A stretch of DNA of 32,986 bases from Puniceicoccales bacterium. Its GTDB lineage: Bacteria; Verrucomicrobiota; Verrucomicrobiia; Opitutales; JAIRLM01. Below, one piece after another: positions 4,428 to 30,649 of this stretch (position 1 is its first letter; every line of letters begins with the position of its first letter). The notes beneath the pieces are model-generated. The model saw only the letters and a program-made list of their open reading frames with translations. It ran no database searches and was not told the DNA's origin. The stretch covers positions 1-32,986 of the forward strand of contig JAIRLM010000003.1 of assembly GCA_031259325.1 (NCBI GenBank). Direction: 5' to 3'. Both the position numbers and the translations under genes were made by a program.

Positions 4428-5783
4428 ATGGGCATGCACCTCTCCGCCTATTTTGCGCGCAGGCGTTTGATAAACCTCCGCAGCCAAACTTTGGAAGGTG
4501 CCCTCAGTGAACTTTTGAGACGCCTTTCCCCGACGGCGAAAATTGATCGCGAAGCCGTTCTGCGGGAATTGATCGTCCGGGAAAATAGGGCTTCCACGTG
4601 TCTGGGAAACGGCATTGCCATTCCGCATATTAAAACTCCCCTCCCGCGCCCGTGTATTTTGGCCATCGGACGCTGCCCCAATGGCATCAAATTTGGCGAA
4701 AATCCCGAATATAAAAATGTGCGACTCGTTTTTCTAATTCTCTTCAACGAGGGATGGGATGGGCAATTGCAGGTTTTAGCTCAGTTGGCCCGTGAACTCC
4801 ACGATCCGCACAAGATATTGTCGCTTATTCATCCGCAATCACTGCCGGCTTTTTACAAAAAATGGCAACAAATTTTTGGCGAAAAGAAGCTAGCAAATCC
4901 GGACGTTCACGTCTCGGCCAAGGGGCAGCGGATTTTTCTCCGGGAATCCTTTCGCCTCGCCCGCAGCTCCGGTTGTCAGTCCGTTTTTCTTTTTCCCGAC
5001 TCGTTGGGCGAGTGGTTTGTCTTCGGAAAATATTTTCCGGGAATGAAGCGCATCCTAGTCACCGAGCGCTTTCAAGAGGATCTTCCATCCCAATATGGCA
5101 TGGATTATTTTCTCAATGTATCTAATCACTCGCGCGCGCGCCTGGTCCAAATGCATGGGGCCATTCTCATCGCACTCACCAGGGGGTTTATCTGTTGCGA
5201 TGAAAAAATATGCTGCATCGGGAGCGGGAGCGAAAGCGGCCACTTTGATTGTCTGGTTTTTGTGGATGTCGCGATTAGGTACAAGTCCCTGTTTGACACG
5301 CGCCGCGGTCTGATTCCTAAGGACGTTTCCTCGGAAGTTTTCGAGCGCGTCATTGCCATTGCCCATCAAATCGCCGCAGAGGGACGGGAGGGTAAGCCGC
5401 TGGGGGCAATGTTCATCCTGGGAAATCACGCTAAAATCAAGCGCTACTACAAGTCACTTATTCTCAACCCGTTTCAGGGCTACCCGCGCCAGGAGCGGAA
5501 CGTTCTCAACCCATTCATCGACGAAACGATTAAGGAATTCGCTTCCATTGACGGCGCCTTCATCGTAGGTAGCGACGGTGTATTCGAGGCCGCTGGGACG
5601 ATGATCAACGCACCGAGTCGCAGAGTCGTCCTTCCTGGGGGATTGGGAACCCGCCACACATCTGCCGCTGCCATATCCAAAGCCGCCGATAGCCTGGCCA
5701 TCGTAGTTTCCCAAAGCACCAGTCAAGTTACCCTTTTTCGTAACGGTCGAATGTTGTCCCTGTCGGAGAAGGTCATTGGCTGA
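4428..5783 (+). CDS. PTS EIIA (fructose/Ntr-type) domain fused to a DacZ-like diadenylate cyclase (DisA_N domain)
   Basis: N-terminal RE..AST.LGNGIAIPH is the EIIA phospho-His motif. The C-terminal part has EGREGKPLGAMF, SIDGAFIV and GLGTRHTSAAAIS (DAC DGA and RHx motifs). Confidence 0.88.
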   Translation: MGMHLSAYFARRRLINLRSQTLEGALSELLRRLSPTAKIDREAVLRELIVRENRASTCLGNGIAIPHIKTPLPRPCILAIGRCPNGIKFGENPEYKNVRLVFLILFNEGWDGQLQVLAQLARELHDPHKILSLIHPQSLPAFYKKWQQIFGEKKLANPDVHVSAKGQRIFLRESFRLARSSGCQSVFLFPDSLGEWFVFGKYFPGMKRILVTERFQEDLPSQYGMDYFLNVSNHSRARLVQMHGAILIALTRGFICCDEKICCIGSGSESGHFDCLVFVDVAIRYKSLFDTRRGLIPKDVSSEVFERVIAIAHQIAAEGREGKPLGAMFILGNHAKIKRYYKSLILNPFQGYPRQERNVLNPFIDETIKEFASIDGAFIVGSDGVFEAAGTMINAPSRRVVLPGGLGTRHTSAAAISKAADSLAIVVSQSTSQVTLFRNGRMLSLSEKVIG

Positions 5784-5906: not shown

Positions 5907-6989
5907 TTACTCTTCCTTTGCGGATATTCTGGAGTATGCCGCAGAGGCTTCTTCATTGGAAATAGCATGTGAATTCCCCGTATACCCCAAAAGCGTATTC
6001 ATTTGCGAAATTTCATTCCGAAACCAAAATAAAGAAGCCGACGCCTGATGGGGTGGTGTGCCATCGGCAATTTGCTGTCTGGCCTGTGCTTCCAGAGAGG
6101 CAATTCTATTCGGAAGATTGGCTTTGTACTGCTGCGTTATCGCAAGAAAGCTCTCATCAAATTCCCGCTTCAATTTGGTGCAAAATTCAGCAATTTCGGG
6201 CATGCATTGGCTGATAAACGCGTCCGTTTTCGGGTCATAGCAGAGTACGTCCGGGTTATGCGCTTGGCTCAGGTCGTTCACGCGATTGGATTGCATATCT
6301 GAAGTGCCTCCATAACGAACAATCCGCGAAAGATCCCACATGCATTTGGCAAGTTTCAAGTGACTATCAACCCGCGATGAATTTGGGTTTCCTAGCAAAT
6401 CAAGCTCTTTTTTGGGAAGCGTTCTCGTCGGATTTTTGGCTATATTCTGATAATCTGCCTGAAGTTTCTCCAGTTTTTGGCGTACAATCTCTTGGTATCG
6501 TTGATTGTAATCCGATTGTGACGCATCGGATACGATTTGCTTCGCAGCGTCCCGGGCGACATCCGTGTCCTCCGGGTGTGCTCCCGGCGGGAGCATGGCG
6601 TCTGTCATCTCTATAATAGCCTCGTCACGGTGTGCATCCAATATTTTGACATTGGGACTATCGGCGATACCACTTTGCAAATTTGTTATAATTGCCCCAA
6701 ATTTATTTACTATTTGCTGGGCGCCAAGTTGGCTCGTGTGGGCCACGACCGCATTAACTATTTTTTCGGACATCCCGAAAAGCGCATTCGTAATACGCAC
6801 CCACCATCCAACGGCTTCACTCTTTCCTAGGGCTTCCCAACGCTTACCGATGGCCTCCCATTTCGCCCGCAACCCTTCTGCGATGTTCAACCGCAAAAGC
6901 CCCGCCCGCAATCTATCTGCAATTCCCGTATTTTTCCCATCACAAAAAGCGGCGGGATTGCAGCTAGGCCCTGCTACGCCCATACTCAT
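5907..6989 (-). CDS. Hypothetical 360-aa helical protein, candidate secreted effector
   Basis: Long ORF. The track start at 7280 overlaps skp, so ATG 6989 (MSMGVAGPSCNP) is preferred. No signal peptide and no known motif. Confidence 0.7.
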   Translation of the reverse strand: MSMGVAGPSCNPAAFCDGKNTGIADRLRAGLLRLNIAEGLRAKWEAIGKRWEALGKSEAVGWWVRITNALFGMSEKIVNAVVAHTSQLGAQQIVNKFGAIITNLQSGIADSPNVKILDAHRDEAIIEMTDAMLPPGAHPEDTDVARDAAKQIVSDASQSDYNQRYQEIVRQKLEKLQADYQNIAKNPTRTLPKKELDLLGNPNSSRVDSHLKLAKCMWDLSRIVRYGGTSDMQSNRVNDLSQAHNPDVLCYDPKTDAFISQCMPEIAEFCTKLKREFDESFLAITQQYKANLPNRIASLEAQARQQIADGTPPHQASASLFWFRNEISQMNTLLGYTGNSHAISNEEASAAYSRISAKEE

Positions 6990-6996
6990 AAGAATT

Positions 6997-7025
6997 ATTC
7001 TGGCAGGCGTACGCAAGGAGCGCAA
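6997..7025 (-). promoter_or_regulatory. Candidate sigma70-type promoter giving a leaderless transcript
   Basis: TTGCGC-N17-CAGAAT on the minus strand, ending 7 nt before ATG 6989. No SD sequence. Confidence 0.35.
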
Positions 7026-7155
7026 CAAAAAAATGCGGACTCGAGGATGGAGCATTGAAGGATCTACACCTCCGCGCAGCATATATAACACCAGCCGGCC
7101 TTTTCCAATTGACTCGATGGGCCGCAGGTCCACAGAATCGGGGCGGAGATTTGTT

Positions 7156-7737
7156 ATGAAAAAGTTTCTTTTGGCGCTCACGCTGAGCGGATTATTCATC
7201 GGCGCCTCGGGCGCGGAGCAGTGTCGTTGTGAAAACAAGCAGTGCTGCAGCGACTGTTGCAATATCCTCACGGTGGACATGCCGAAGATCTACAACAGCT
7301 ACGGCAAGGCGGAGCGATCCAGGGAAAAATTCCAAAAGGCGGTGGAAAAAGCCCAAAACGAGCTCCGCGCCATGCTAGAAGACGGAATCAAAATGGCCAA
7401 GGAGCTAAGGAATCTCCAGGAAAAGGCTGAAAATCCAGCGCTCAGCGATTCGGCGAAGGAAAAACAACGCAAGCAGATCGAGGAATTGACGGAGAAGGTG
7501 CACAAAAAAGAAGTCGAAGTGAATGAGTTTCGCCAGGAAAGCGATCGAAAACTTTCCGAAAAACGCGAGAAATTCGTGACGCGCCACGTGAACGAAATTA
7601 AGGAGGTCATTGGAAAAATCGCCGAAGAAAGCGGCGCCATTGTCGTTCTTAATGCTGCGGGTGTCGATGTGCTTTACTACATGCCAGGCCTGGATATTAC
7701 CCAAAAGGTGATTACGCGTCTAAATGCTGAAAAATAA
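7156..7737 (+). CDS. skp: OmpH/Skp-family periplasmic chaperone
   Basis: Signal peptide MKKFLLALTLSGLFIGASGA after GGAG; ILTVDMPKIY beta-strand; long coiled coil; C-terminal VLYYMPGLDITQKVITRLN. Confidence 0.88.
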   Translation: MKKFLLALTLSGLFIGASGAEQCRCENKQCCSDCCNILTVDMPKIYNSYGKAERSREKFQKAVEKAQNELRAMLEDGIKMAKELRNLQEKAENPALSDSAKEKQRKQIEELTEKVHKKEVEVNEFRQESDRKLSEKREKFVTRHVNEIKEVIGKIAEESGAIVVLNAAGVDVLYYMPGLDITQKVITRLNAEK

Positions 7738-10111: not shown

Positions 10112-10188
10112 GTTTGTGAATCGCAAGGGAAATTTGGCAAAATTTTTATTTGCTAATTCCTGCGGACTTCATAATTATAGATGGCGTT

Positions 10189-10410
10189 ATGGCGAGTATA
10201 GCTGCGCGCGTTCGGCCATCAAAGTCTCTCAAGATCCATAAGGCCAGTTGCGCCAAAAAGATTGTGGCTAAAAAGGATGACGATCTTCGCCGCCCAAAAG
10301 AGGATCTTATGGATAGCCTAAAAGAGACAGAAGATCTATCGAAGTGCAAGTCTTATTCAAGCTTGGACGAGCTGCTCAGTGATTTGCGATCAAAACATGG
10401 AAATATTTAA
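10189..10410 (+). CDS. Putative antitoxin for the downstream YoeB toxin
   Basis: 73-aa ORF overlapping the toxin start. The C-terminus KSYSSLDELLSDL resembles RelB/DinJ-type antitoxin tails. Confidence 0.65.
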   Translation: MASIAARVRPSKSLKIHKASCAKKIVAKKDDDLRRPKEDLMDSLKETEDLSKCKSYSSLDELLSDLRSKHGNI

Positions 10411-10663
10411 GTCGAAGCGTTTTGAAAATGGCTATGCAAGACTTGTGAAAGAAGATCCGTGTTTGGTTAGAAAGCTCGAAAAAATTATGGCCGCCGTGAT
10501 TACATCGCCCAGGGCGGGAGTTGGGCGACCTGAGCAGCTTAAGGGATATCGCCCGCGGGTAGTGTGGTCGCGGCGTATCATTGGCAAACATCGTTTAGTG
10601 TACGAACTTGGTAAAAATTTTATCGTATACCATTCCTGCTACGGCCACTACGATGATCATTGA
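10397..10663 (+). CDS. yoeB: Txe/YoeB-family toxin (ribosome-dependent mRNase)
   Basis: GVGRPEQLKG...WSRRIIGKHRLVY...SCYGHY, the YoeB signature. Confidence 0.9.
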   Translation: MEIFKSKRFENGYARLVKEDPCLVRKLEKIMAAVITSPRAGVGRPEQLKGYRPRVVWSRRIIGKHRLVYELGKNFIVYHSCYGHYDDH

Positions 10664-10983: not shown

Positions 10984-11724
10984 ATGGAACAAGCCGCCCA
11001 TCCGTTGGCTCCTGGGCTTTACGTAGTTGCCACGCCCATTGGAAATCTTGGCGATATTACCCTCCGGGCGCTGAAGATTTTAAAATCCGTGGACTTGATT
11101 GCCTGTGAAGATACGCGGACAACGGCTAAGTTGTTACGACACTACGACATAGTGCGTGCGATGGTTTCATACCACGAGCACAATGAACGCGCGCGAGCAA
11201 GCGAAATTGCCGATAAAATTCAAAACGGTTCGCGCGTGGCACTGGTTTGTGACGCTGGAACGCCCGCCGTGAGTGACCCCGGCTTCCGACTGGTTCGGGA
11301 ATGCCGTATCCGGCGACTCCTCGTTGTGCCCATACCTGGACCTAGCGCATTTACGACGGCACTTTGCGCATCGGGGCTGCCATCCAATGCTTTTTTATTT
11401 TTGGGATTTCTCTCCAATAAATCCGCCGCGCGCGTCCGAACGCTGGAAAATTACCGAAACTTCCCGCACACACTTATCTTGTACGAGTCCTGCCACCGGG
11501 CCCAAAAGCTTCTCGGCGAAATTGTTCAAGTGTTCGGCCATGAGCGAGTCATAGCCATCGGTCGAGAACTCACCAAATTGCATGAAACGTTCTACCGCGG
11601 GAATGCCGGTGAGCTTCAAAAAATATTGGACACATCCCAATGTCGTGGTGAATTTGTCTTTCTCATTGCCCCGGAAGATTTTAGCAGCAATGAAGTTCCG
11701 GTTTGGGCGCCGAATGCCACGTGA
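10984..11724 (+). CDS. rsmI: 16S rRNA (cytidine1402-2'-O)-methyltransferase
   Basis: LYVVATPIGNLGDITLRAL, IACEDTR, DAGTPAVSDPG, PIPGPSA, RELTKLHE. Confidence 0.97.
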   Translation: MEQAAHPLAPGLYVVATPIGNLGDITLRALKILKSVDLIACEDTRTTAKLLRHYDIVRAMVSYHEHNERARASEIADKIQNGSRVALVCDAGTPAVSDPGFRLVRECRIRRLLVVPIPGPSAFTTALCASGLPSNAFLFLGFLSNKSAARVRTLENYRNFPHTLILYESCHRAQKLLGEIVQVFGHERVIAIGRELTKLHETFYRGNAGELQKILDTSQCRGEFVFLIAPEDFSSNEVPVWAPNAT

Positions 11725-11726
11725 CG

Positions 11727-13682
11727 CTATGCCTCGTATTGCAGGGTTGAAATGTGGTGTTGTTCGCGCTGTGATTTCTTCCAGCCCCTCCAGCTCTTCC
11801 GACCTCTTCGATGTGGTTTTTCAGGTATGGCAAACTCGTCCATGTTGAGGGTTGGTTTCCCGGAGAGATTGCTTCTTTGAAAGAATTTTTCGTAGGGATC
11901 GCCTTCATCCGGGGAAAGCTCAACAACACGCGGAGATATAATGAACAAGCGCTCCATGGTTTCCGTCGCCCGATCGGCCATACTAAATAGACGGCCGATA
12001 ACGGGAAGATTTTTCAAAACCGGGATTCCACGTCGGCCATCGCTGTGGTGCTCGTAGTAGTACCCGCCAACGATGAGGCTTTGTCCCTCGTTGAGGATGG
12101 ACTGGGTGTTAATTTGACTACTGGTGACCATGGGCATGCCCGCGGAGCCGCCGGTGTCGGACATGGTTCCATCCTCAATGCTGACGAAGAGTTTGATTTT
12201 GCGCTCCACCGTTCCGTCATCCCTGGGAATATCAATAATGTGGGGAATGACGCGAAGGGCGACCTTCGCGGAAACGGTGAACAGATCCGTGGCATAGGCG
12301 CCAGCCACGGGAACATAGGTTTCCCGATTGTTGGAGATGACCGCCGCAATGTTATCCAGCGTCAGCACCGACGGACGAGACAGGGTTTTTGCCGCGCTAG
12401 ATGACTCCAAGGCTTGCAACCTGGCGGTAATTCCCGCGGATCCCATGTTGGGAACTTTTAAATAGAAGTTTAAATTTTTGTCGTCCAGGGTTAAATCGCC
12501 GCCTTCCGGTCTCCAGAGGAGAGAGCGCTCTCCATTAAGGAATTCCAGCACATCGATGCCCATTTTGTGACTTCTACCCACGTTGATATCTACGATGGCC
12601 ACGTCGATTTCTACGGCTTTCGTGGGAACGTCGAAACGCTCAATCAGGGACTGGTAAAATGGCATGAGATCCTTCCGATCCCGTATTATCACTGCGTTCT
12701 GCCGGGCATCGTAGGTAATTGAGGTAAATTTCCCGGTTAGGCTCCGAGACTCCGCTTCTTCAGCCGTGGTTTTAGTTTTCTTATCATCAGTAGTTCGCAA
12801 AGGCTTTGTTGAGAGCTTAGTGATCCCCTTCAATTGCGAAACCTGCGTTGATTGTTTCTTTGCCTCCTGCTCCTGTTGTGCTGCCTGTGCCGCCATTTGC
12901 TGGGCCTGATTTACCGCCGTGGAAACCGCTGACTGCTGCTTAAGCACGCCATCTACGGTATTTGGTTTATTCGGGGCTCCCAGTAGGACGCTTTCCTGCA
13001 TGACATTGGGAATGGTGTTCATTCCGCTCAAAATGCGGGTTAAAAGGGTCGCGACGCCCTCAATGGAGACACCGCTGCCCGTACCGACATCCAGGGTGAC
13101 GTCATAGGCGAACGCATATTTTAATGGAAAAATTTGAACCACGGTTTCATCGGCGAAGTTTTGAATGGTGTTCGTTTGGACCTTGGAGAGGAACGTGCGC
13201 AACACTTCGAGGAACCTGGGCGGACCGCTAGCAACCATCATTTTCGTGTCGGGGACGTAGCGGAGGACGGTGTTGGATCCGGCAAAGTCCAAATCGGCCA
13301 TGACTTTCCGGAGAGATGCGGCTTCCTGCGGCGTCATGGAGATAACCTCGGTCTTTATTTCCGTTCCCGGATAGACGTAAAGCGCGGTGCCGTCGTAGAA
13401 CCAAATCAAATTATACGCCTTTGAGAGCCGTTCCCAAAATTCATTTGGGGCGATGTTTTCAAAAATTCCATTCACGATCCCGGACAACGGAGCGCCGATG
13501 ATCACATCCACATGTTGAATGGCGGTGAAATCATGGATAAGAGCGTTAAGATCCTGGTTCTGTGCAAAATGGTAGTAATGCTCGTCCGTCCATGGAATCT
13601 CGCCGGCTTGGAGCGAATCGCTGAGCAGGAAGAGTCCAATTACCAATGCCGTGGACGAAAGAAAGCGATGAAGTAATTTCAT
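11727..13682 (-). CDS. sctC: Type III secretion system outer-membrane secretin (SctC; YscC/HrcC/EscC family)
   Basis: Signal peptide. N0 domain IPW..YYHFAQNQDL...F..LSKAYNLIWFYDGTALYVY, N1 MVASGPPRF and IFPLKYAFAYD are typical of T3SS secretins. The secretin domain has SRPSVLTLDN, GQSLIVGG, GIPVLKNLPVIGRLF and ERLFIISPRVV. Confidence 0.9.
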   Translation of the reverse strand: MKLLHRFLSSTALVIGLFLLSDSLQAGEIPWTDEHYYHFAQNQDLNALIHDFTAIQHVDVIIGAPLSGIVNGIFENIAPNEFWERLSKAYNLIWFYDGTALYVYPGTEIKTEVISMTPQEAASLRKVMADLDFAGSNTVLRYVPDTKMMVASGPPRFLEVLRTFLSKVQTNTIQNFADETVVQIFPLKYAFAYDVTLDVGTGSGVSIEGVATLLTRILSGMNTIPNVMQESVLLGAPNKPNTVDGVLKQQSAVSTAVNQAQQMAAQAAQQEQEAKKQSTQVSQLKGITKLSTKPLRTTDDKKTKTTAEEAESRSLTGKFTSITYDARQNAVIIRDRKDLMPFYQSLIERFDVPTKAVEIDVAIVDINVGRSHKMGIDVLEFLNGERSLLWRPEGGDLTLDDKNLNFYLKVPNMGSAGITARLQALESSSAAKTLSRPSVLTLDNIAAVISNNRETYVPVAGAYATDLFTVSAKVALRVIPHIIDIPRDDGTVERKIKLFVSIEDGTMSDTGGSAGMPMVTSSQINTQSILNEGQSLIVGGYYYEHHSDGRRGIPVLKNLPVIGRLFSMADRATETMERLFIISPRVVELSPDEGDPYEKFFQRSNLSGKPTLNMDEFAIPEKPHRRGRKSWRGWKKSQREQHHISTLQYEA

Positions 13683-14131
13683 TTTGCGAGACCTCTACTG
13701 TGTGGATTAGACGGGAGCGCCCCCGGTGTGGGATCGATAAGGCCTTTCAGGGCCATCCGGTTATGTTTCACGTTGGCCACGAAATTTTCCACCACTTCCC
13801 CAATGGAATCTTCGGTGGCCGATTCGAACGGAATATTCATTGACAGGGCAAGCTCATCATACTCTGGAACATAGACGAGAACCTCCGGCTCGGCGATGGC
13901 GCGATCGAAATTCAACCGCAGCAAATCCATGCATTTGTCCAACTTCGCAAATGCGGTGGAGGCTTCCTTCACAAGTTGTCCTTCCAGCAGAAGGTTCTTG
14001 CCGCTGTTTGCCAAGAGGCGGATTTGCGACCCGTCGCCGAGCACAACTCCATAGTTGCCGTTTCCATCGGCTTCCCAGCTGAAAACGCCCAGCTCTGCAG
14101 CGATAACGGAAATCACCTCTTCCCTTTGCAT
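13679..14131 (-). CDS. Class I type III secretion chaperone (CesT/SycE-like)
   Basis: 150-aa acidic protein with the pattern DGNGNYGVVLGD...LLRLNF...ELALSMNIP...VENFVANVKHNR. Its stop overlaps the sctC start by 4 bp (ATGA). Confidence 0.72.
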   Translation of the reverse strand: MQREEVISVIAAELGVFSWEADGNGNYGVVLGDGSQIRLLANSGKNLLLEGQLVKEASTAFAKLDKCMDLLRLNFDRAIAEPEVLVYVPEYDELALSMNIPFESATEDSIGEVVENFVANVKHNRMALKGLIDPTPGALPSNPHSRGLAK

Positions 14132-14145
14132 ACAACAGACGGCTG

Positions 14146-14174
14146 AAGTTACCTAGAAGGATTTTGACTGGCAA
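14146..14174 (-). promoter_or_regulatory. Candidate sigma70-type promoter of the chaperone-sctC operon
   Basis: TTGCCA-N17-TAACTT on the minus strand, 14 nt upstream of ATG 14131. Confidence 0.4.
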
Positions 14175-14231
14175 GGAAAATCTTCCAAATCACCCCGCTG
14201 GACGAAACTTATCGTGTCGCCGGGGTGCACT

Positions 14232-14726
14232 TTACGCCCTGCTCCGCGTCCACCAATCGCGCAGACGGTAAGGATAAACGGCCAAATAGAGGCTTTCAAG
14301 GACAATGCCATAGGCGAATACCTTTATGCCTAAGGCCCACCATTGGTAGTGGTCTAAAAGCGCATTAAGCACGGCCGCCGCCCAAAGTAGCTGCAAAATT
14401 ACAACGCCGCGAACGGCCAGAAAGCCGTAATTTCGCCAAATGGCCCCCGCCGCCAGAAGGACTAGGAAAGCCTGAAAAATCCTTCGATGCCCGCCGAAAT
14501 CCGCATCGCTCAGCGTGGAAAATTTCCAAAAGAGGCACACCACCGCTGCTAGAAAAATGCTGAAATTTATCCATTTGTTGAATAGGATCCTGTAGACGAA
14601 ATCACGCTCAAACGGATGCCAAACCACCAGCGCCAACACGCCAACGGGAATAAGACCGGCGAAAATCAAAAACCACACGAACACACCGTAAATGCGATAG
14701 TCCGAGATGCCACAAAAAATCTCCAT
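14232..14726 (-). CDS. Hypothetical multi-pass membrane protein
   Basis: About 5 hydrophobic segments with LSDADFG, FLAVRG and YPYRLRDW. Start ATG 14726 is preferred because 14825 overlaps the HEPN gene. Confidence 0.75.
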   Translation of the reverse strand: MEIFCGISDYRIYGVFVWFLIFAGLIPVGVLALVVWHPFERDFVYRILFNKWINFSIFLAAVVCLFWKFSTLSDADFGGHRRIFQAFLVLLAAGAIWRNYGFLAVRGVVILQLLWAAAVLNALLDHYQWWALGIKVFAYGIVLESLYLAVYPYRLRDWWTRSRA

Positions 14727-14794
14727 CACGTCAGAACCCGCGACGGCATCTTGAAAATATTGCCAATTGTGGATGATGGAAACAGAAATTTTCC

Positions 14795-15226
14795 ATGGTC
14801 GCCGATGGACTTTTCTATGAGCCACTTGTCCGCGCGCTTGGAACCTTGGAAGAGGCCTTGAATTCTGCGCAAAAACGGCCCAACGACCTTATCGCCCGGG
14901 ACGCAACCATCCAGCGCTTCGAGTACACCTACGAATTAGCAACCAAAATCCTGCGGCGCTACTTGGTCATGCAGGCGTTGAGCGGGGACGAAATCGCCCA
15001 GATGGGCTTCAAAAACCTGATACGGGAGGCCAACGCGCGGGGCATTCTTCGCGGAGATGTGGCACTTTGGGATAGCTTTCGCGAGGCTCGGAACCTGACC
15101 GGCCACACTTATCGGGCGCCGATAGCCGACGAAGTTTTTGAGAAAATCCCCGCCTTCATCGGCGAAGTAAGATTTTTTCTCGATGAACTACGACGCGTAG
15201 AAAGGACGGAAAATGGGGATCATTGA
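14795..15226 (+). CDS. HEPN-domain protein, HI0074-like nucleotidyltransferase substrate-binding subunit (toxin)
   Basis: RDATIQRFEYTYELA and the Rx4H motif RNLTGHTY. Confidence 0.9.
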   Translation: MVADGLFYEPLVRALGTLEEALNSAQKRPNDLIARDATIQRFEYTYELATKILRRYLVMQALSGDEIAQMGFKNLIREANARGILRGDVALWDSFREARNLTGHTYRAPIADEVFEKIPAFIGEVRFFLDELRRVERTENGDH

Positions 15227-15533
15227 CCTCACTCCGGAGCAGATGCAGTTCGTGCGTGTGACCTTGGCCAGGCATCTCATAAATAGCGGCGCAACGGTGT
15301 ACGTGTTCGGCTCGCGGGCGACGGGCAAGGCGCGGAAGTTTTCCGATTTGGATCTGGCCATAGATTACCCCGACGGCATTCCCGAAAACACATTGCTAGC
15401 CCTGAAGGACGACTTCGAGGAAAGTAACTTCCCCTACTTCGTGGACATCACCGACTACCACCGGTGCGACAGACCATTCCAAGAAATCATCGACCGAACG
15501 AATACCCTGCTTACCCGATACACACCAGGATAG
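15213..15533 (+). CDS. Minimal nucleotidyltransferase (MNT) antitoxin
   Basis: VYVFGSRATGKARKFSDLDLAI (GSx10DxD) and FEESNFPYFVDI. Overlaps the HEPN gene. Confidence 0.9.
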   Translation: MGIIDLTPEQMQFVRVTLARHLINSGATVYVFGSRATGKARKFSDLDLAIDYPDGIPENTLLALKDDFEESNFPYFVDITDYHRCDRPFQEIIDRTNTLLTRYTPG

Positions 15534-15602: not shown

Positions 15603-16238
15603 CTATACAAGCATTTGCTGGGTCGCAAGCATTGGCCCGTAATGTCGGCCGGCCCATTGGGCCAAAATCCCAAAAAAGAGGCCAATCATCGCAGCGACGG
15701 CGGACAGGAAAACGCCCTGCCATGGAATGGCAAAACCAGCGGATTTCGTAAGCAGAAGCCCAAGCATAGTACAAAAAGCCGCAAACCCGGTGGCAATCCC
15801 TCCATCAGCAACCCGGGCCAAGGCAACGCGCGACACGGAATCCGGCAACGGCGGAATTCTATAAGAAACAGCAAGTCCGTCGTCCAGGATAACGCAACGC
15901 ACCATCACCTCATGCCCATTTGCCGCCTTTCGCAAAGTCTGCTCCATCAGAGGCACATACGCCTTACTCCGCACAAAAAAAAGCGGCACGCCAGACGATA
16001 GGCCAAGGCACAGCATGACAATCTTATCCGCCACTCCCTCCCGCAACTTCAAACTTTCTTCGTCTCCCACGGCTGGAGCGGCGGTGACCTCGGGCTCCGG
16101 CATCACGCAACCATCCGCCCCGTAACAAACCGCCGGACCCGAAGCCGAAACAGCCAATTCGTGCAAGTCTGAACGCCCAAACTTAAGATTCCACGCCACT
16201 GCGAACTCATCCCAAAATCGTGCTACCCGTGCGTTCAC
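15603..16238 (-). CDS. Hypothetical protein with a C-terminal two-helix hydrophobic hairpin
   Basis: 211-aa ORF with an uncertain GTG start; C-terminal GGIATGFAAFCTMLGLLL-TKSAG-FAIPWQGVFLSAVAAMIGLFFGIL. Confidence 0.6.
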   Translation of the reverse strand: MNARVARFWDEFAVAWNLKFGRSDLHELAVSASGPAVCYGADGCVMPEPEVTAAPAVGDEESLKLREGVADKIVMLCLGLSSGVPLFFVRSKAYVPLMEQTLRKAANGHEVMVRCVILDDGLAVSYRIPPLPDSVSRVALARVADGGIATGFAAFCTMLGLLLTKSAGFAIPWQGVFLSAVAAMIGLFFGILAQWAGRHYGPMLATQQMLV

Positions 16239-17675: not shown

Positions 17676-19235
17676 TCACAGAAGTAAAAAGGCCGAACCC
17701 AGAATGATGGTTGGCGGAAGCGCGGCGGCTAGTAATCCGAGGGGGGAAACGCCCCGGGGGAAAAATCTCTGCAGGATGGATTGGCCGGCGGGGTTCGGCG
17801 CATTGGCGATAACCGTAAGTCCGCCACCGCTGAGGGCTCCCGCGGCAATGGCATACTGCAGGGCGCTATTGCCGGAAAACTCCGGAACCAAAGAGCACAG
17901 GTAGGTGATGGCTGCGTTGTCGTTAAACGTGCTCAGACCCATGGCTCCGAAGAACAACCACAGACGGGACATGCGCTCCAATACCGGGGCAATCCACCAT
18001 TCCTGCAGCCCGCCGTGGGTTACCAACCCAGCCAGGAAAAATCCGACGAAAATGGGTTCGCGGAGGGAGACGCGGTACTGAAAATGCGACGTGGCTTGAA
18101 TAAATGCCAGGAAGATAAGGAAAGTATACCAGAATGTCTGCGGCGAGTGGAGATTGGCCACGCTCCAGGCGATGAAGAGAATATGTACCAACGTAACCCA
18201 GAATGGCACCGCTGATTCCGCGGATTCGGCGTCCTTGGGCTCATCCCGCCGCAACGCCTCCGCCTTGCCATTGAGTAACAGCAACTCCCGGCGGAAAACG
18301 CAGGCGTACATGAGCGTGTTGAGTCCGATGCCCACCATGGCCCGCCAGCCAAAATGCGTGAACATGAACATCAGGTCCCAGTTCCACTTATCGGCGACAA
18401 TGAGCACGGGCGGTGCGGCGAAGTGGGTTAACGTGCCGCCGACGGAAACATTGGCAAAGAGCAAACCAAGGGTTCCATAGGAAAATGCCGTGGATGGGGA
18501 AAGCGGGTAAAATTTTCGCGCCAAAAGCATTGCGGCTATGGTAATTGCCGCCGGTTCGGTGATAAACGATCCCAGCAGTGGGGCGATGGAAAGAATGGTA
18601 ATCCACCAGGCGGAAACACTCGCATGGCCAATTCGGGCCACGAATCCGAGGATGCGCTCGGCAAACGCGAGAATGGGTTTACTCGCCGCCATGGCCATGA
18701 TCACCACCACAAACATGGCCTCCGTGTAGGAAACCCGATGGGACACATAGAAGCAGAAGTCATCCCAGCCGTAGCGCAGGGTGATGGCCAGGGCCACGGG
18801 GATAATCCAGATGCCAAAAATGGCCTCAATTTCGCCCATGAAGTGGCAGAGAGTGGCGGGAAAGGAAACGGGGATTTCCGAGGTGTTTTTTGTTCTCTGC
18901 GGATTCATCGACAAACGAAATTCATGGCGCTCCTCAAGTCGTTGAGACAGGCGCAGAAATTTCGGAGCCAGGAAAGTATGCGCGATGGCACCGAAAAAAA
19001 GAAGGGTTACCACCACGTTCATTGGCGCATACGCAACACGCACGCGCAGGGTCTCCCAAAGCGTGAGCGGACGGTTTAATTCCCGCATAAGTTGGTTTTC
19101 GCATTTTTGGTAAATTTCCAGGGGGATCGGATATTCCACACCGGATGGGCGCGGGACCAAGTGTTCGCCACGGGATTCGCCGGTGAGCAGGGCGGCAAAA
19201 ATGAACACCGTCAAAAATGGAAGCCTTCTGAGCAT
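17676..19235 (-). CDS. Putative Na+/H+ antiporter (DUF1504/Na_H_antiport_3-like)
   Basis: Many TM helices; HFMGEIEAIFGIW, PLLGSFITEPAAIT, NVSVGGTLTHFAAPPVL, FNDNAAITYL, GGGLTVIANAPNPAGQSIL. Confidence 0.85.
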   Translation of the reverse strand: MLRRLPFLTVFIFAALLTGESRGEHLVPRPSGVEYPIPLEIYQKCENQLMRELNRPLTLWETLRVRVAYAPMNVVVTLLFFGAIAHTFLAPKFLRLSQRLEERHEFRLSMNPQRTKNTSEIPVSFPATLCHFMGEIEAIFGIWIIPVALAITLRYGWDDFCFYVSHRVSYTEAMFVVVIMAMAASKPILAFAERILGFVARIGHASVSAWWITILSIAPLLGSFITEPAAITIAAMLLARKFYPLSPSTAFSYGTLGLLFANVSVGGTLTHFAAPPVLIVADKWNWDLMFMFTHFGWRAMVGIGLNTLMYACVFRRELLLLNGKAEALRRDEPKDAESAESAVPFWVTLVHILFIAWSVANLHSPQTFWYTFLIFLAFIQATSHFQYRVSLREPIFVGFFLAGLVTHGGLQEWWIAPVLERMSRLWLFFGAMGLSTFNDNAAITYLCSLVPEFSGNSALQYAIAAGALSGGGLTVIANAPNPAGQSILQRFFPRGVSPLGLLAAALPPTIILGSAFLLL

Positions 19236-19344
19236 GTTTCGCAGTCTGTTGCGCAGACCGGTTCTGTCAATCGCCGGAGAAAATGCGCATTCCTCGCGTA
19301 CGACAACGCTGGTAATTTGAAGCACTCCGGTTAGCGTTGGCGAT

Positions 19345-24059: not shown

Positions 24060-25934
24060 ATGAGCACTCACAATGTTGGCTTAGCGGGGGGATTCCTTCT
24101 GCCTTTGCGCGGAAAATTGAAACAAATGGGGACTGGCGTTACGTACGCCACTGATGGAGTTGTAATCACTTGCACAAACGCAACTTTGAGATCGGGCACC
24201 TTTAACCTTGGCCGTGCGCTGCGTTTCATCGTTCAAATTACCGGCATTGGTGCGCTGATACTTTGGGTGGCGGAAAGCCGAATCGCCCGTAGCGAGCCTA
24301 AATCTCCGCGTACGCTTACGAACGCACTCATCGCCATCTCGCATTGGGCGCCACTGACTCAAAAAACAGGAGATGGGGCGCGTATCGCCAAAGAACGCTT
24401 GGGGGCAGTCGTTAAGGCTACCGAGGGAATTACAAGAATAGCTGCAGAACCGGTCCCTGTCCAGCAATTACCTGACCTAAATGTGTCCGTCGACGACAAA
24501 CTGCCAGCACCACCGGAGGCAGTAAATGTTCCGCCACTGGAAGACCATCCAGTGAAAGGACCAGAATCACGTAACTTAAACATACCCAGCGTCGACAAGC
24601 CATTGGATCGATCGGAGAAAACAGACGTTCAGCCGCCGGAAGACCATCCAGTGGAAGGACCAGAATCACGTAACTTAAACACACCCAGCGTCGACGAGCC
24701 ATTGGATCGATCGGAGAAAACAGACGTTCAGCCGCCGAAAGATATTCCAGTGGAAGGACAGCCCCCTGCACCACAACCGGAACAAGCGCCGTCGCCGGTT
24801 GCATTTGTAGATTTTTTAGCCAAGGTAGACATCCCGGACGCCGAATGCGCACTCGTGCGAGCCGCGCGGGCCAAACTTGGATTCGCAGGAGAGAGAAATA
24901 AGGGTACAATAGAGACGTGGAAAAAAAATCCTCATGGTACAAAAAGCCAACTTGGCCAAGCCTTTAGGGACAAAATTGATAAGTATTTGAATGAAGGTTA
25001 TACGGAACTGCAGCCGGAAATAGCGGCTCTGGTAGCCAAGAGCCCATGCTTATCCATGCGGAATGTATCGCCGGATGAAATCACCGCGCTTGCTAAGCGG
25101 CAAAATGATAACCCGTCGGTATTTACCATCGTATCTGGAATGCCGGTAGAAATTTTACAACATATCCCGTCCGCCGACAACGGCCGACCACCAATTGTGC
25201 AAGTGGCAAGCCAGTTCAACGGCTGCGAATCTCCATGGGCGCATTTAGTCGAACTCCCAACTTATGTGCGCGACCGCACGCAGGGTCCTGGAGCCAGCCT
25301 GACCGCGTTGGTAGCCGCCGCATTGCGTCTCGAATTTTTTCGAGCCCAAGGGTATGACGCCATGAAAGAATGCCTGACTGGGTGCACGGTGACAACAGCC
25401 GAAGGCGATAAGTCCATATGCGCCGCATATCCGGAACTTTGCCAAAACGGATATTTTCAGCCTCATGTCATCGGCAACACGGAACATTTGCGCGTCCTGG
25501 AACAGTGGCTGGAAAACCACAAAGTTTCGACTATGGCACAGTGGGTGCAATGTGAGGAATCGGGCGCGGTGCAATTGCAGGTGTTTAACGCTGCCGCATC
25601 CTTCCAGAACGTCAAGGTGACATGGAACGCCACGGATGATGAACGGACGAAATTATTGATAAACATATGTAGACACACACTCGTTGGGCAGTACCGAGCG
25701 TTGGCACGAGTAGCCGCTCATACCGGCCAAGATTTACATCTAACCTTGGTTGGGATGGGCGTATTTCATAATCCACCCGCACTTGTTACAGACATATTAC
25801 GCGCGACTAACGAAGAGCTTGTCGGAGCTGGTGTGCGTGTGTTCCTGCATGCATATGCACAGAAAGATGCCGACCTCTGGGGTGCTGCCATAAAAGCAAA
25901 TAACCTCACAAACGCAAACATTTCGCTGGCCTAG
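24060..25934 (+). CDS. Hypothetical 624-aa protein with Pro/acidic tandem repeats and a C-terminal macrodomain/PARG-like domain; candidate effector
   Basis: Long ORF. C-terminal motifs QVASQFNGCE, YVRDRTQGP and LHLTLVGMGVFHNPP. Confidence 0.75.
   Translation: MSTHNVGLAGGFLLPLRGKLKQMGTGVTYATDGVVITCTNATLRSGTFNLGRALRFIVQITGIGALILWVAESRIARSEPKSPRTLTNALIAISHWAPLTQKTGDGARIAKERLGAVVKATEGITRIAAEPVPVQQLPDLNVSVDDKLPAPPEAVNVPPLEDHPVKGPESRNLNIPSVDKPLDRSEKTDVQPPEDHPVEGPESRNLNTPSVDEPLDRSEKTDVQPPKDIPVEGQPPAPQPEQAPSPVAFVDFLAKVDIPDAECALVRAARAKLGFAGERNKGTIETWKKNPHGTKSQLGQAFRDKIDKYLNEGYTELQPEIAALVAKSPCLSMRNVSPDEITALAKRQNDNPSVFTIVSGMPVEILQHIPSADNGRPPIVQVASQFNGCESPWAHLVELPTYVRDRTQGPGASLTALVAAALRLEFFRAQGYDAMKECLTGCTVTTAEGDKSICAAYPELCQNGYFQPHVIGNTEHLRVLEQWLENHKVSTMAQWVQCEESGAVQLQVFNAAASFQNVKVTWNATDDERTKLLINICRHTLVGQYRALARVAAHTGQDLHLTLVGMGVFHNPPALVTDILRATNEELVGAGVRVFLHAYAQKDADLWGAAIKANNLTNANISLA
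24539..24760 (+). repeat. In-frame 99-bp (33-aa) tandem repeat, about 2.2 copies
   Basis: Units start at 24539, 24638 and 24737, encoding EDHPV(K/E)GPESRNLN(I/T)PSVD(K/E)PLDRSEKTDVQPP. The first two copies are nearly identical. Confidence 0.95.
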
Positions 25935-26015: not shown

Positions 26016-26278
26016 GACTTATTGCAAAAGTCAAACTCGCAATTCTCGAACTCGCAATTCATGCGATGGAGAATGACCGAGAACAATTTTTGCAAAAAAT
26101 CTATTTTTAACTTGCTAAGTTTGACCATGTTGTAAGGCTCCGCCAGCTTATGAGTATGGAAAGGATAGGCGGGAGTGTTCCACATCTCGCGGTAGGTGAT
26201 AGCACGGCTGCTATTGTGCTGAACCCTGGACTTCTACCGGCAGTCGCGACAGAGCGCTTGGCCGGAGCGGAAACCGTG
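26016..26278 (+). repeat. Direct repeat copy 1 (upstream region plus first 43 codons)
   Basis: Aligns colinearly with 27265-27525, e.g. GACTTATTGCAA, TTTTGCAAAA, TTTTAACTTGC, CTTATGAG, TGTTCCACATCTCGC, GGACTTCTACC. Confidence 0.92.
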
Positions 26279-27256
26279 GACCTGGCCCACGCAAAATCCG
26301 CAAATAGTACCGCCTGGACAGAATTAGATAGACTCGTACGTGATGGTCTGTTTTACCGTCTAGACGTGGGCGCCGTTCGAAGTGTGCTCGGATTATTTCC
26401 TACTAGAGAGGGTGACATTGAAACGATTCGAGCGAATACGCTGGCGCTTCAACAGGAAATAACGGCTTTGCAGGCGGTAATAGTTACATACCGCAGAGCA
26501 CTTGAGCAACTAAGGGAAGTCAAGGGCATATGGGAGATGGAATTTTTAGGCAACGAATACGTACTACTCACATCGAAATGCATACAGAAGACCGACTATA
26601 GGTTGCTATGTATAATAGACGGTGTTCCCGAAGAGGAAGCCGAAGAGGTTCCTGGTATGACCAGGTATGAAGCCGCCCAGAACGTGCTGGAGGACATTAT
26701 TGAGCTACTCCAAGGTACAGGAGAGAACGTGTGTACCGGAAGACTACAAGCCGCAATTGTAGCCGTACAGCAGACGATAGATGCTGAAATGGAGGCGCGA
26801 AGGATCCAGGAAATACGACAGAGCATGATGCCCCAATATGGGCGCGTGTGTCTTGAATGCAGGACGTTGTGCAACACAGTTCAATGCATGACACGGTTTG
26901 CAAGCACGTTGGACCTCGCTCATATCACTGAGCTTATGCGTGTTGACAACATGGGAAACACAGTCGAAGAAATCCGAAGGACTATCGAAAGAATGCAGGC
27001 CGCAATACGGCTTTTTAATCGGATGCTCGTCAATGATCTAATTTGGCGTATCTTAGAAATGTTCATCGGTGAATTGAAGAAGCGTGGACTGGATCCAAAC
27101 CAAACTATAAAGGCGTATCGTGATTTTGCGGGTGACGTGGAGGCTAATGGCGGCGACGCATCGCCAGAAGCTCTGGAACCAGCGAGAGCCGAAGTGCTAA
27201 GGTTGAAGACGCTACTGCCCGATGTGCACAATAGACTTTTAGAGATGGACTATTGA
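26150..27256 (+). CDS. Hypothetical 368-aa coiled-coil-rich protein, candidate effector
   Basis: Long ORF with heptad-like segments (TLALQQEITALQAVI, VEEIRRTIERMQAAI). No signal peptide. Confidence 0.75.
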   Translation: MSMERIGGSVPHLAVGDSTAAIVLNPGLLPAVATERLAGAETVDLAHAKSANSTAWTELDRLVRDGLFYRLDVGAVRSVLGLFPTREGDIETIRANTLALQQEITALQAVIVTYRRALEQLREVKGIWEMEFLGNEYVLLTSKCIQKTDYRLLCIIDGVPEEEAEEVPGMTRYEAAQNVLEDIIELLQGTGENVCTGRLQAAIVAVQQTIDAEMEARRIQEIRQSMMPQYGRVCLECRTLCNTVQCMTRFASTLDLAHITELMRVDNMGNTVEEIRRTIERMQAAIRLFNRMLVNDLIWRILEMFIGELKKRGLDPNQTIKAYRDFAGDVEANGGDASPEALEPARAEVLRLKTLLPDVHNRLLEMDY

Positions 27257-28965: not shown

Positions 28966-29865
28966 ATGAGTTTCTGCCCGATTTATAAGGATTCCACGGA
29001 GGCCAGCCGGGTTTACCTTTTGCCAAATCTGTTTACCGCGGGAAATTTATTTTGTGGATTTTTGGCGATTTTGCGATTTATCCAAGCCAAGTACGGCTCG
29101 CTGGTTGGGTATAACCCCGTGGAATATTACACCCAGGGTGTGTGGCTCATCGTGCTTGCCGCGATTTTGGATCTCTTCGACGGCCGCGTGGCCCGTTTAA
29201 GTGGCCGCATGTCACTCTTTGGCGCCGAGTTTGACTCACTTGCGGATCTTGTATCCTTCGGCGTCGCCCCGGCACTGCTCGTTTTTTTCCTCATTCTATC
29301 CCCGTCGCCGGGGAATTATCCGCAGTACCTGGATTCGGTATTTTTGAAATTTGGCTGGCTCATCGGCTTCATTTATTTGCTCTGCTGCGCCGCCAGGTTG
29401 GCCAGATTTAATGTGCTCATGACGCCGTTGCTTCCCCGCGGGGAAAAGTACATTGACGTGCACGATTCCATTGGGCTTCCCGTTCCAGCGGCGGCGGGGA
29501 TCATCATCTCCATCGCCATCATCCTCATACACGCGGAACTTTCCCCGCCATTTGCCGGATTACTGCTGCCGATTATGCTGCTCGTTTCCGTGCTAATGGT
29601 AAGCACCATTCCGTTCCCGGTGTTTAAGCATATCGCCTGGAACACGCGCACCCGATTCCGCACCTTCGTCGTGGTTGCAACCGTCGTGTCCATGATTGCA
29701 TTTCTCTCCGTCTACGCCATCGCCATTGTATTTTTCACCTACCTCGTGAGTAGCCTGTTTTTGCGCCGCCGACTCATCACCCGCTGGCCATTCCAAAAGG
29801 TGGCCAAGGTGCATAGGCTGATTTGCGAAAAGCGCAACCGCCGCGTTAATGGTGATTCGGTGTAG
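28966..29865 (+). CDS. pssA: CDP-diacylglycerol--serine O-phosphatidyltransferase
   Basis: LLPNLFTAGNLFCGF, the CDP-alcohol motif DLFDGRVAR...FGAEFDSLADLVSFGVAP, ARLARFN, GLPVPAAAG. Confidence 0.9.
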   Translation: MSFCPIYKDSTEASRVYLLPNLFTAGNLFCGFLAILRFIQAKYGSLVGYNPVEYYTQGVWLIVLAAILDLFDGRVARLSGRMSLFGAEFDSLADLVSFGVAPALLVFFLILSPSPGNYPQYLDSVFLKFGWLIGFIYLLCCAARLARFNVLMTPLLPRGEKYIDVHDSIGLPVPAAAGIIISIAIILIHAELSPPFAGLLLPIMLLVSVLMVSTIPFPVFKHIAWNTRTRFRTFVVVATVVSMIAFLSVYAIAIVFFTYLVSSLFLRRRLITRWPFQKVAKVHRLICEKRNRRVNGDSV

Positions 29866-30649
29866 CCACGCGCGCGCAGTCGATCCAGTCCAGGTATAGG
29901 GTAAATTTTGTTTTTGGTTTCCTCCCGTCGACGCCGTCCGGCGCAACGGGTTCCGCCTCAATGCCTTGCAATACAACCGGCATGGACCGCATTTTATTTA
30001 CGAACCTGCGAAATGTACCCGTGGAACAGCTGAACTGTAACCGGAATGAATATGCTCCGTCCCTTGGAAATTGAAAAAGTGGTACGAATTTTCGCGCGTC
30101 AAATAGGTCATTGGGAAAGCGTGCCAGTTCCCGCGATTCACCGGCTCGCTGAAGGGATATGAACTGCAAATCCCCGTCGGATATGCGAAACAGGGCCGTT
30201 AGCAAAAGGCGCGTGAGCTCCAACTGGTCCTGAATTTTCGCCGCGTCCCAGGCCATTCCCCGGCGTATGAAATCCGAAAAGCCAAATCGCGGCCCGTCGG
30301 CAAAGATAATCCCGGACGACACCGCCTCCTGTTCCAACCGGTGCATGGTTTCTATCAAATGGAAATAGGCATCGGTGGCGGTAACGGCGGGGCCCTCTCG
30401 GTGAAACTGGGCAAACGGATGCGCCTGCCAGGCTTTTGCAAATTCCTCCGTTAGTTGCCGTTGCCGGACAAGAGTTCCTCCGGCGACATTTCCAAGCCTC
30501 TGCCGCGTGTCCATTGCTTCCCGGTAGGTGGTAAGCAATTTCTGGTGCCGTACCCGCAACCGCATGTGGGCGACGGCCAAGAGCACAAACACAACGGCGA
30601 AGGCGACCCACAGAATGGTCCTGCGATGACTTTGTAACATGCGATTCAT
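29846..30649 (-). CDS. Amuc_1100-like / PilO-like type IV pilus alignment protein
   Basis: N-terminal TM anchor, coiled coil, then AYF...EAVSSGIIF...FGFSDF and FRLQFSCSTGTFRRFVNKM. Coupled (ATGA overlap) downstream of the PilM-like gene. Confidence 0.65.
   Translation of the reverse strand: MNRMLQSHRRTILWVAFAVVFVLLAVAHMRLRVRHQKLLTTYREAMDTRQRLGNVAGGTLVRQRQLTEEFAKAWQAHPFAQFHREGPAVTATDAYFHLIETMHRLEQEAVSSGIIFADGPRFGFSDFIRRGMAWDAAKIQDQLELTRLLLTALFRISDGDLQFISLQRAGESRELARFPNDLFDARKFVPLFQFPRDGAYSFRLQFSCSTGTFRRFVNKMRSMPVVLQGIEAEPVAPDGVDGRKPKTKFTLYLDWIDCARVATPNHH

Follow-up and report, generated by a model that had tools for sequence, protein, structure and literature searches.

The window, a stretch of 32,986 nucleotides that makes up the entire contig C21 of an uncultured Puniceicoccales/Opitutales bacterium (GenBank assembly GCA_031259325.1, contig JAIRLM010000003.1), carries two adjacent genes of a type III secretion system (T3SS), those of a small chaperone and of the outer-membrane secretin SctC. 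We are confident that this pair belongs to a complete non-flagellar, Ysc-like injectisome, whose genes occupy about seven places in a genome of roughly 1 Mb.

11727..13682 (-): sctC, type III secretion outer-membrane secretin, 651 aa (TIGR02516, Pfam Secretin and Secretin_N)
13679..14131 (-): class-I (CesT/SycE-fold) T3SS chaperone, positional yscB equivalent, 150 aa, isoelectric point (pI) 4.65 (Pfam CesT)
13679..13682 (-): ATGA stop/start overlap of chaperone and sctC, 4 nt (GCA AAA TGA over ATG AAA TTA)

The original prediction had read the 651-aa protein as a YscC/HrcC-type secretin translationally coupled to a CesT-like chaperone, with no other sct gene in the 33 kb. Indeed, the secretin scored 365.7 bits with the SctC equivalog model TIGR02516 (cutoff 238.45), and Pfam recognized its Secretin (105.6 bits) and Secretin_N (52.4 bits) domains; with the stricter NF011873 model it obtained 273 bits and did not reach the threshold of 524. 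The upstream protein matched Pfam CesT (PF05932) with 41.4 bits (cutoff 22), and the 4-nt overlap confirmed the coupling. Among all 34 open reading frames (ORFs) of at least 70 aa in the window, Pfam gave T3SS-family matches only for the chaperone and SctC. The verrucomicrobial placement held as well: the three closest SctC loci in a collection of species representatives (86, 60 and 57% identity) all come from metagenome-assembled genomes (MAGs) of Puniceicoccales bacteria, and the nearest relative keeps the synteny 177-aa ORF-chaperone-sctC-rsmI-pgi.

The injectisome in the rest of the genome

A check proposed with the original prediction was the presence of non-flagellar export genes elsewhere in the window's genome (G000; 838,471 b in 47 contigs, 79% complete, contamination 0.07%, contig G+C 0.44-0.54). 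Such genes were found on other contigs, over curated cutoffs: SctV (906.5 bits, contig C45), SctN (667.1 bits, C8) and SctJ (212.2 bits, C12), once each, as well as SctU (409 bits) and SctT (193.5 bits) on C9 and SctR (263 bits) on C47. Pfam matches were obtained for the YscD domains, the SctF needle, SctI, YscK, SctL, YscO, SctS, TyeA and YscX. SctV, SctU, SctR, SctT and SctJ had a single match each, and no second match of the FlhA, FlhB, FliP, FliR or FliF type was detected in the 79%-complete genome; therefore, no flagellar set was found in the sequenced part. The loci are arranged as follows:

C12: SctD, a 75-aa protein in the E position, SctF, a tetratricopeptide repeat (TPR) protein (G-like), SctI, SctJ, SctK, SctL
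C8: SctN, SctO, a 276-aa protein in the SctP position, a 384-aa protein in the SctQ position
C47: SctR
C9: SctS, SctT, SctU
C45: TyeA (41.3 bits), a CesT-like protein of 124 aa (SycN-like, 18931-19305), YscX (PF09474, 68.5 bits), a TPR protein of 166 aa (YscY-like), SctV
C33, 6195-13665 (L057): probable tip/translocon operon, on a contig of its own
C37: candidate YopN-like gatekeeper, 502 aa (ad hoc SctW profile, E 2.2e-8)

The SycN family was recognized (PF21665, 39.4 bits) in the G029 orthologue of the 124-aa protein. The SctP (276 aa) and SctQ (384 aa) proteins gave only sub-threshold Pfam matches and were named by their position and by comparison with G077, a genome of the same genus, which has a contiguous string sctN-O-P-Q (400 aa)-SpoA protein (232 aa)-sctR followed by unrelated genes. 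There SctQ is divided between two genes (L066:7484-9419, G077:C12), the 400-aa product with a weak and the 232-aa product with a clear SpoA match (62.8 bits). Because this string is contiguous, C8 and C47 probably adjoin in the window's genome, with the second SctQ gene falling in the gap between them, and sctR is truly detached from sctS-T-U; no exact overlap was found between the ends of C8 and C47.

Large ORFs lie beside several of these loci. Directly 3' of sctR, in the usual place of sctS, is a 1482-aa ORF with no Pfam family (G000:C47:26676-31124 (-), L018:4676-9124), and 5' of SctS-SctT-SctU on C9 is a 629-aa ORF that looks FeoB-like by eye. On C45, 6 kb from the tyeA...sctV locus, an open frame (G000:C45:1-12558 (-)) spans at least 4185 aa and is truncated at the contig end.

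The translocon and gatekeeper components are weaker candidates than the core sct genes. The C33 operon encodes a weakly LcrG-like protein of 127 aa, two paralogous ORFs of 826 and 553 aa with near-identical N-termini, an ORF of 438 aa and two proteins with matches below the cutoffs, namely a chaperone resembling LcrH (67 bits) and a translocon protein of 319 aa resembling SseD (E 5.8e-7); its gene order, as we take it, resembles lcrG-V-H-yopB-D. The gatekeeper candidate on C37 adjoins the gene for a 503-aa protein whose ubiquitin C-terminal hydrolase (UCH) domain is of the eukaryote type (PF00443, 135.5 bits; G000:C37:13067-14578 (+), L067:4067-5578). From its domain, this UCH-type protein appears to be a strong effector candidate, and a deubiquitinase of this type beside a candidate gatekeeper provides a link to eukaryotes that speaks for the proposed injectisome.

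SctC would be exported by Sec and form an outer-membrane ring above the SctD and SctJ rings, and the machine would deliver effectors into a eukaryotic host cell; the eukaryotic target is what we infer.

The chaperone before sctC

The AlphaFold2 model of the chaperone, built on an alignment of 20 orthologues, had a mean predicted local distance difference test (pLDDT) score of 86.1 and the elements H-E-E-E-H-H-E-E-H, that is, the alpha-beta3-alpha-beta2-alpha fold of class-I T3SS chaperones. A Foldseek search with this model gave 41 matches in the PDB at E <= 0.001, and among the matches listed nearly all were T3SS chaperones. The best was YscB (1xkp_C, E 1.2e-7, TM-score on target 0.74), with ExsC, SicP and CesT close behind. 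No paralogue of the chaperone was found elsewhere in the window's genome by tblastn.

The position of the gene pointed in the same direction. The annotated gene orders are yscA-yscB-yscC-yscD-E-F-G-yopR-lcrO-J-K-L, plus yscN...U, on Yersinia pYV, ascB-ascC-ascD in Aeromonas, and CesT-family chaperone-sctC-sctD-x-sctF-TPR-x-sctJ-x-sctL on the Nitratidesulfovibrio plasmid. Since all these records place a chaperone before sctC-sctD, the comparison of gene orders shows the window pair as the first two genes of a Ysc-type chaperone-sctC-sctD-...-sctL operon that was broken between sctC and sctD. What had been predicted to be a stand-alone chaperone-SctC unit is thus better described as the severed head of the yscB-yscC-yscD...L operon. 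An ORF of 132-218 aa, the chaperone, abuts sctC in 22 of 22 distinct loci of relatives.

We propose that the chaperone would act like YscB, pairing with the SycN-like protein and holding the gatekeeper, and that this pair would help to order secretion, with translocators before effectors. The predicted heterodimer of the chaperone and the SycN-like protein of C45 received a complex score of 0.85 (best of 3 controls: 0.20), at least 93% of the contacts agreed between runs, and the partner had a pLDDT of at least 80; in calibration of this score, 58 of 80 solved complexes but only 2 of 110 mismatched pairs attained the mark. Since the SycN-YscB complex (1xkp) has already been solved, the prediction shows likeness to it and not binding; it supports the heterodimer as a model and leaves room for homodimers.

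The alternative that stands up best, which we consider rather unlikely, leaves the rest of the system unchanged and makes the 150-aa protein a general or effector-specific homodimeric chaperone of the CesT type, or an ExsC-like regulator-binding one, instead of a YscB-type gatekeeper co-chaperone. The chaperone family profile, searched against the PDB, slightly favours this, with E-values of 5.7e-9 and 7.1e-9 for CesT-family chains and 1.6e-8 for YscB. The NCBIfam models touched by the 20 orthologues, all below their cutoffs, include SicP (5/20) and CesT_sub (2/20), against the YscB model as the most often touched (11/20, best E 2.2e-5). Against this alternative stand the yscB/ascB position of the gene and YscB as its best structural match. 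Furthermore, the relative G001 has the string chaperone-sctC-sctW-sycN, and the window's genome keeps a SycN-like partner, TyeA and a gatekeeper candidate.

A number of points weigh against a YscB-like role and, more broadly, against the proposed Ysc-like injectisome. The YscB equivalog model TIGR02513 gave only 13.4 bits with the chaperone (E 0.066, cutoff 90.05). YscB, CesT, ExsC and SicP are near-ties, so that the YscB assignment consists of position and a narrow lead, and the complex prediction, which does not separate a heterodimer from a homodimer, may succeed because the predictor already knows the SycN-YscB structure. Four relatives without sycN beside sctV (G003, G109, G064 and G020) nonetheless retain the chaperone. 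Because a chaperone precedes sctC in a Pantoea Hrp cluster too, this adjacency is not unique to Ysc and the position is no proof of the YscB type. Nor was a clear gatekeeper domain found: HrpJ/LcrE (PF07201) was not detected in the window's genome or in 5 of 5 members of the chaperone/SctC family searched, TIGR02568 had no match in the window's genome (a weak test, since its control matched nowhere), and tblastn with the G029 SctW found nothing there. The C37 candidate was itself weak, with a tblastn E-value of 1.5e-4 for the YopN-like protein of G007 and only 0.084 for LcrE. In addition, the number of loci, about seven, is approximate because the genome is 79% complete and fragmented and C8 and C47 probably adjoin.

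The phylogeny adds a further point of this kind. In a quick SctC tree (30 rows, 609 columns, long branches, 8 of 27 forks open, no chlamydial, Salmonella pathogenicity island 2/locus of enterocyte effacement (SPI-2/LEE) or myxococcal references), the window's SctC grouped in a clade with its own family (support 100), and three further small-genome families formed the sister group (93). Apart from it, a single clade (92) united the six named references, YscC and AscC standing with the other proteobacterial secretins; the deep forks of the tree were open. The root was the other secretin of the window's genome, on contig C1, which is very distant (branch length 10). This rooting is unreliable and we therefore draw no conclusion about a sister T3SS family.

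Retention and scattering in relatives

SctC exceeded the cutoff in 51 of 201 sampled genomes of the order, and its occurrence followed genome size: it was present in 47 of the 49 genomes of at most 1.4 Mb and in 4 of the 152 others (1.8, 1.8, 1.9 and 4.4 Mb), counts that use rounded sizes and include related, hence non-independent, genomes. The two small genomes without SctC are a 61%-complete bin and one with only the N-terminal half of the gene. A sample of 301 genomes from across the phylum contained 19 with a non-flagellar SctV (13 of 149 genera). A different family of the same class likewise has such an SctV, over the cutoff, in two closed 0.9-Mb genomes (832-834 bits; G274:C1:314470-316500 and G296:C1:603123-605147).

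This retention bears on the view that the injectisome is a decaying relic without present function. The reduced genome, the broken operons and the barely recognizable gatekeeper domain, SctP and SctQ would fit it. We nevertheless consider it improbable: the core sct genes have intact frames without internal stops, and the ratio of non-synonymous to synonymous substitutions (dN/dS) relative to same-genus orthologues was 0.055-0.062 for sctC and 0.12-0.20 for the chaperone, which indicates purifying selection on both, next to the near-general presence of SctC in the small genomes.

The dispersal of the system over the chromosome, as originally predicted, is real because the flanks of sctC (11.7 kb and 19.3 kb) are free of sct genes, sctD-L lies mid-contig on C12, and a closed relative shows the same scattering. 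The housekeeping flanks of sctC and sctD-L measure 11.7-35 kb. In the closed genome G003 (878,461 b), the positions are 101 kb for SctV, 261-264 kb for SctN and SctJ, and 773 kb for SctC; on one contig of G109, they are 394-397 kb for SctJ and SctN and 633 kb for SctC; and in G077, of the same genus, C, J, N and V are on four contigs. These data leave very little room for an artefact in which contigs were binned from different organisms or adjoin over assembly gaps. Such an artefact could be suspected in a 47-contig draft with sct genes at contig ends (C8, C9, C45 and C47) and with C8 and C47 probably adjoining. It is contradicted by the low contamination (0.07%), the uniform G+C, the single-copy core genes, the mid-contig SctC and sctD-L, and the repetition of the pattern in G077 and in the closed G003. 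The scattering may have arisen by rearrangement during genome reduction, as in chlamydiae.

G001 (4.4 Mb) has a single T3SS island of about 27 kb on one contig, with the order sctU-T-S-R...N...J...D...chaperone-sctC-sctW-sycN...sctV; its SctC is 29% and its SctV 61% identical to those of the window's genome. The module upstream of sctV erodes stepwise across the relatives. It is fullest in G029 and G014, as sctW (HrpJ + TyeA)-sycN-yscX-yscY-sctV; in G007, split YopN-like and TyeA genes precede sycN-yscX-yscY-sctV; the window's genome and G077 have tyeA-sycN-yscX-yscY-sctV; and in G003, G109, G064 and G020 only yscY-sctV remains. There is thus a graded series from one island (4.4 Mb) over partly linked loci (1.8-Mb genomes) to full scatter (closed 0.88 Mb), in which the dismantling of a 25-kb multi-operon machine without loss of function can be studied; previously, this was possible mainly in chlamydiae.

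A tentative reading of this distribution, possible in our view though somewhat less than probable, is that the order acquired a Ysc-like injectisome a single time, prior to the radiation of at least 10 family-level lineages with genomes of 0.8-1.9 Mb, and that purifying selection has preserved it in essentially all genomes of at most 1.4 Mb while its operons were progressively cut apart. If so, it would be the shared host-manipulation organelle of a radiation of verrucomicrobial protist symbionts, the 'Nucleococcus cluster' in the sense of PMC8204192 and its kin. It would also be an independent second case, in the Planctomycetes-Verrucomicrobia-Chlamydiae (PVC) group, of a chlamydia-style lifestyle with a scattered T3SS, and the YscB/SycN/TyeA module would act on a gatekeeper diverged past recognition.

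The genome-reduced verrucomicrobial symbionts of protists are known mainly from 16S sequences and a few genomes. PMC8204192 describes a verrucomicrobial 'Nucleococcus cluster' whose members live as symbionts in the nucleus or cytoplasm of protists, and mentions a MAG of about 1 Mb as unpublished. By size alone, the window's genome fits this MAG. A single public run contains the window stretch; it is a run of DNA, bears the label termite gut metagenome and may be the source of the stretch, and no RNA run containing it is listed. The literature searched, which did not extend to supplementary MAG tables, yielded no account of a T3SS in symbionts of the Puniceicoccales/Opitutales, and type III secretion is not mentioned in the main text of PMC8204192, of PMC5698493 and of a bioRxiv paper on the termite gut. 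According to PMC3459982, scattered non-flagellar T3SS (NF-T3SS) genes are already known from all Chlamydiales and from Hamiltonella, and an NF-T3SS had been detected earlier in Verrucomicrobia. The interest of the present case lies in the lineage-wide retention and graded fragmentation of a canonical system in a little-studied lineage. The injectisome, together with the translocon and gatekeeper candidates and the deubiquitinase, offers a concrete, testable mechanism of host interaction.

The secretin, its locus and known systems

That the secretin belongs to a type II secretion, type IV pilus or competence system hardly needs to be entertained: although secretins are common to these systems, and weak PilQ and GspD matches and another secretin on C1 exist, the SctC model (365.7 bits) far exceeded PilQ (117.6), GspD (80.1) and HofQ (79.6), all below their own cutoffs, InvG (126 bits) and MxiD (123) outscored PilQ (76) and GspD (51) among the PDB matches, the gene is coupled to that of a T3SS chaperone, and the C1 secretin is very distant in the tree. 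This also answers the other proposed check, of the secretin against GspD and PilQ. The C1 secretin itself (631 aa, G000:C1:9770-13706, L019) lies beside smaller ORFs and presumably belongs to a type II or type IV pilus system kept in the reduced genome.

The domain plan of SctC consists of a signal peptide, a marginal T3S N0 domain (26.4 bits, slightly below the Pfam cutoff of 27), N-domains and the C-terminal secretin pore:

13605..13682 (-): putative Sec signal peptide, about residues 1-26, MKLLHRF...SLQA|GE (by eye from the translation, no predictor)
12747..13016 (-): Q/T/A/K-rich expansion within the N3 (Secretin_N) domain, residues 223-312 (TIGR02516 match split around it; loop-length comparison)
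11919..12413 (-): C-terminal secretin pore domain, residues 424-588 (PF00263, 105.6 bits, profile positions 1-169 of 169)
11730..11918 (-): C-terminal tail of 63 aa with a basic end (pI 9.52 overall, 11.0 for the last 31 aa)

The long Q/A/K/T-rich insertion and the basic tail had both been noticed in the original prediction and are present. The insertion contains 13 Q, 11 T, 11 A and 10 K among its 90 residues; the TIGR02516 match falls into two stretches flanking it, and the 69-position Secretin_N profile is stretched over residues 182-354. The loop that contains it (residues 215-320) has 106 aa, compared with 27-30 aa at the equivalent place in YscC and AscC, 50-88 aa in the other SctC proteins compared and 83-106 aa in the window's own family. 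Because loop lengths differ in every SctC compared, we read the insertion, from the alignment, as the long extreme of a hypervariable loop and not as a new domain. The tail lies where other secretins presumably have their pilotin-binding S domain. Its length and sequence vary among relatives, and conservation is lacking already at the genus level (41 aa in L034). In the G010 relative, the SctC frame extends to 1676 aa, with a 1117-aa, strongly acidic extension (97 K/R, 238 D/E) past the secretin domain (L048:8427-13457, G010:C1).

Upstream of the chaperone, the following features were noted:

14132..14231 (-): gap of 100 nt, candidate promoter region, unsupported (consensus scan and reading)
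14232..14825 (-): co-directional ORF of 197 aa, hydrophobic, probably a membrane protein, 100 nt upstream of the chaperone (no Pfam or NCBIfam family)

The candidate promoter assigned to the pair by the original prediction found no support. A consensus scan of 3.6 kb (11400-15000) detected 3 sites, compared with 2.3 ± 1.5 in shuffled sequences, and none of them in the gap, where only a weak TTGCCA...TAACTT match was seen by eye and no clear Shine-Dalgarno sequence. The 197-aa ORF is possibly co-transcribed with chaperone-sctC, its membership being uncertain; L020 and L046 have a 62% identical homologue at the equivalent place, which L021 and L022 lack there. At the other end, the stop codon of sctC is 2 nt from that of a convergent rsmI-like gene.

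The pair is bracketed by two toxin-antitoxin-like pairs (10150-10663 (+) and 14795-15533 (+)), one a YoeB-like toxin with an 86-aa ORF upstream, the other a HEPN-type NTase_sub_bind protein with a Pol-beta nucleotidyltransferase. Besides these, the flanks in the window encode a proton-translocating pyrophosphatase (H+-PPase), PGI, an RsmI-type methylase, Fmt, RarA, FtsW/RodA, RNase G and a release factor. A 451-aa protein at 4428-5783 (+) has both a phosphotransferase system (PTS) EIIA-2 domain, at residues 15-135, and a diadenylate cyclase domain of the DisA type, at residues 315-441. Of the 34 ORFs, 16 have no Pfam family; the sizeable ones (211-624 aa, at 808-1479, 5907-7280, 15603-16238, 24060-25934, 26150-27256 and 29846-32232) had earlier been called orphan effector candidates.

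Judged by gene content and order, the system appears to be Ysc-like and canonical, and not an undescribed one as originally suggested; membership in the Ysc clade proper goes beyond the evidence. SctV matched 7alw over its full length (827 bits) and, with its cytoplasmic domain, 7qij (408 bits), both of which we take to be Yersinia YscV, followed by 6wa6 (312 bits), presumably chlamydial CdsV, and by MxiA, InvA, SsaV and EscV (150-173 bits). By tblastn, SctC was about equally distant from plasmid-borne secretins of the Desulfovibrio type (33.0% identity), Ralstonia (32.6%) and Yersinia (31.8%).

The window's system agrees with the Ysc system of Yersinia pYV in the chaperone gene immediately in front of sctC, in the gene orders D-E-F-G-I-J-K-L and N-O-P-Q-R-S-T-U, and in the presence of TyeA, SycN-like, YscX and YscY-like TPR proteins before SctV; YscB is also the best structural match of the chaperone. 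YscX and YscY are, to our knowledge, specific to the Ysc family. In contrast to the single plasmid region of Yersinia, the genes occupy about seven chromosomal loci, sctR is apart from sctS, and SctQ is divided between two genes. SctC, 31.8% identical and with a loop about 75 aa longer, is not nested in the Ysc clade, and no recognizable YopN, YscW pilotin or VirF was found in the window's genome. The Desulfovibrionales-type system of the Nitratidesulfovibrio vulgaris plasmid gave the top SctC tblastn score among the plasmids (33.0% identity, 278 bits) and has a matching chaperone-sctC-sctD... order with sctW-sycN nearby, but it is a single plasmid cluster and stood with the proteobacterial references in the quick tree.

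Two further systems were compared by description only. The NF-T3SS of Hamiltonella defensa is likewise a complete, scattered system of an intracellular symbiont, as described in PMC3459982, although of a gammaproteobacterium. The T3SS of Verrucomicrobium spinosum, a free-living bacterium with a large genome, is the only verrucomicrobial one known to have experimental backing, namely T3SS-dependent pathogenicity to Drosophila and Caenorhabditis elegans.

In its organization, the system is most reminiscent of the chlamydial T3SS (the 'Chlamy' family), an injectisome scattered among housekeeping genes in the reduced genome of an intracellular PVC bacterium, and 6wa6 was the second-best match of the SctV cytoplasmic domain. 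However, the window's genome has YscX and SycN/YscB-type genes, and its secretin is of the SctC type (GspD model: 80.1 bits), whereas the secretin of the chlamydial system is T2SS-like, according to PMC3459982. Because of this difference in the secretin, we place the window's system outside the 'Chlamy' family.

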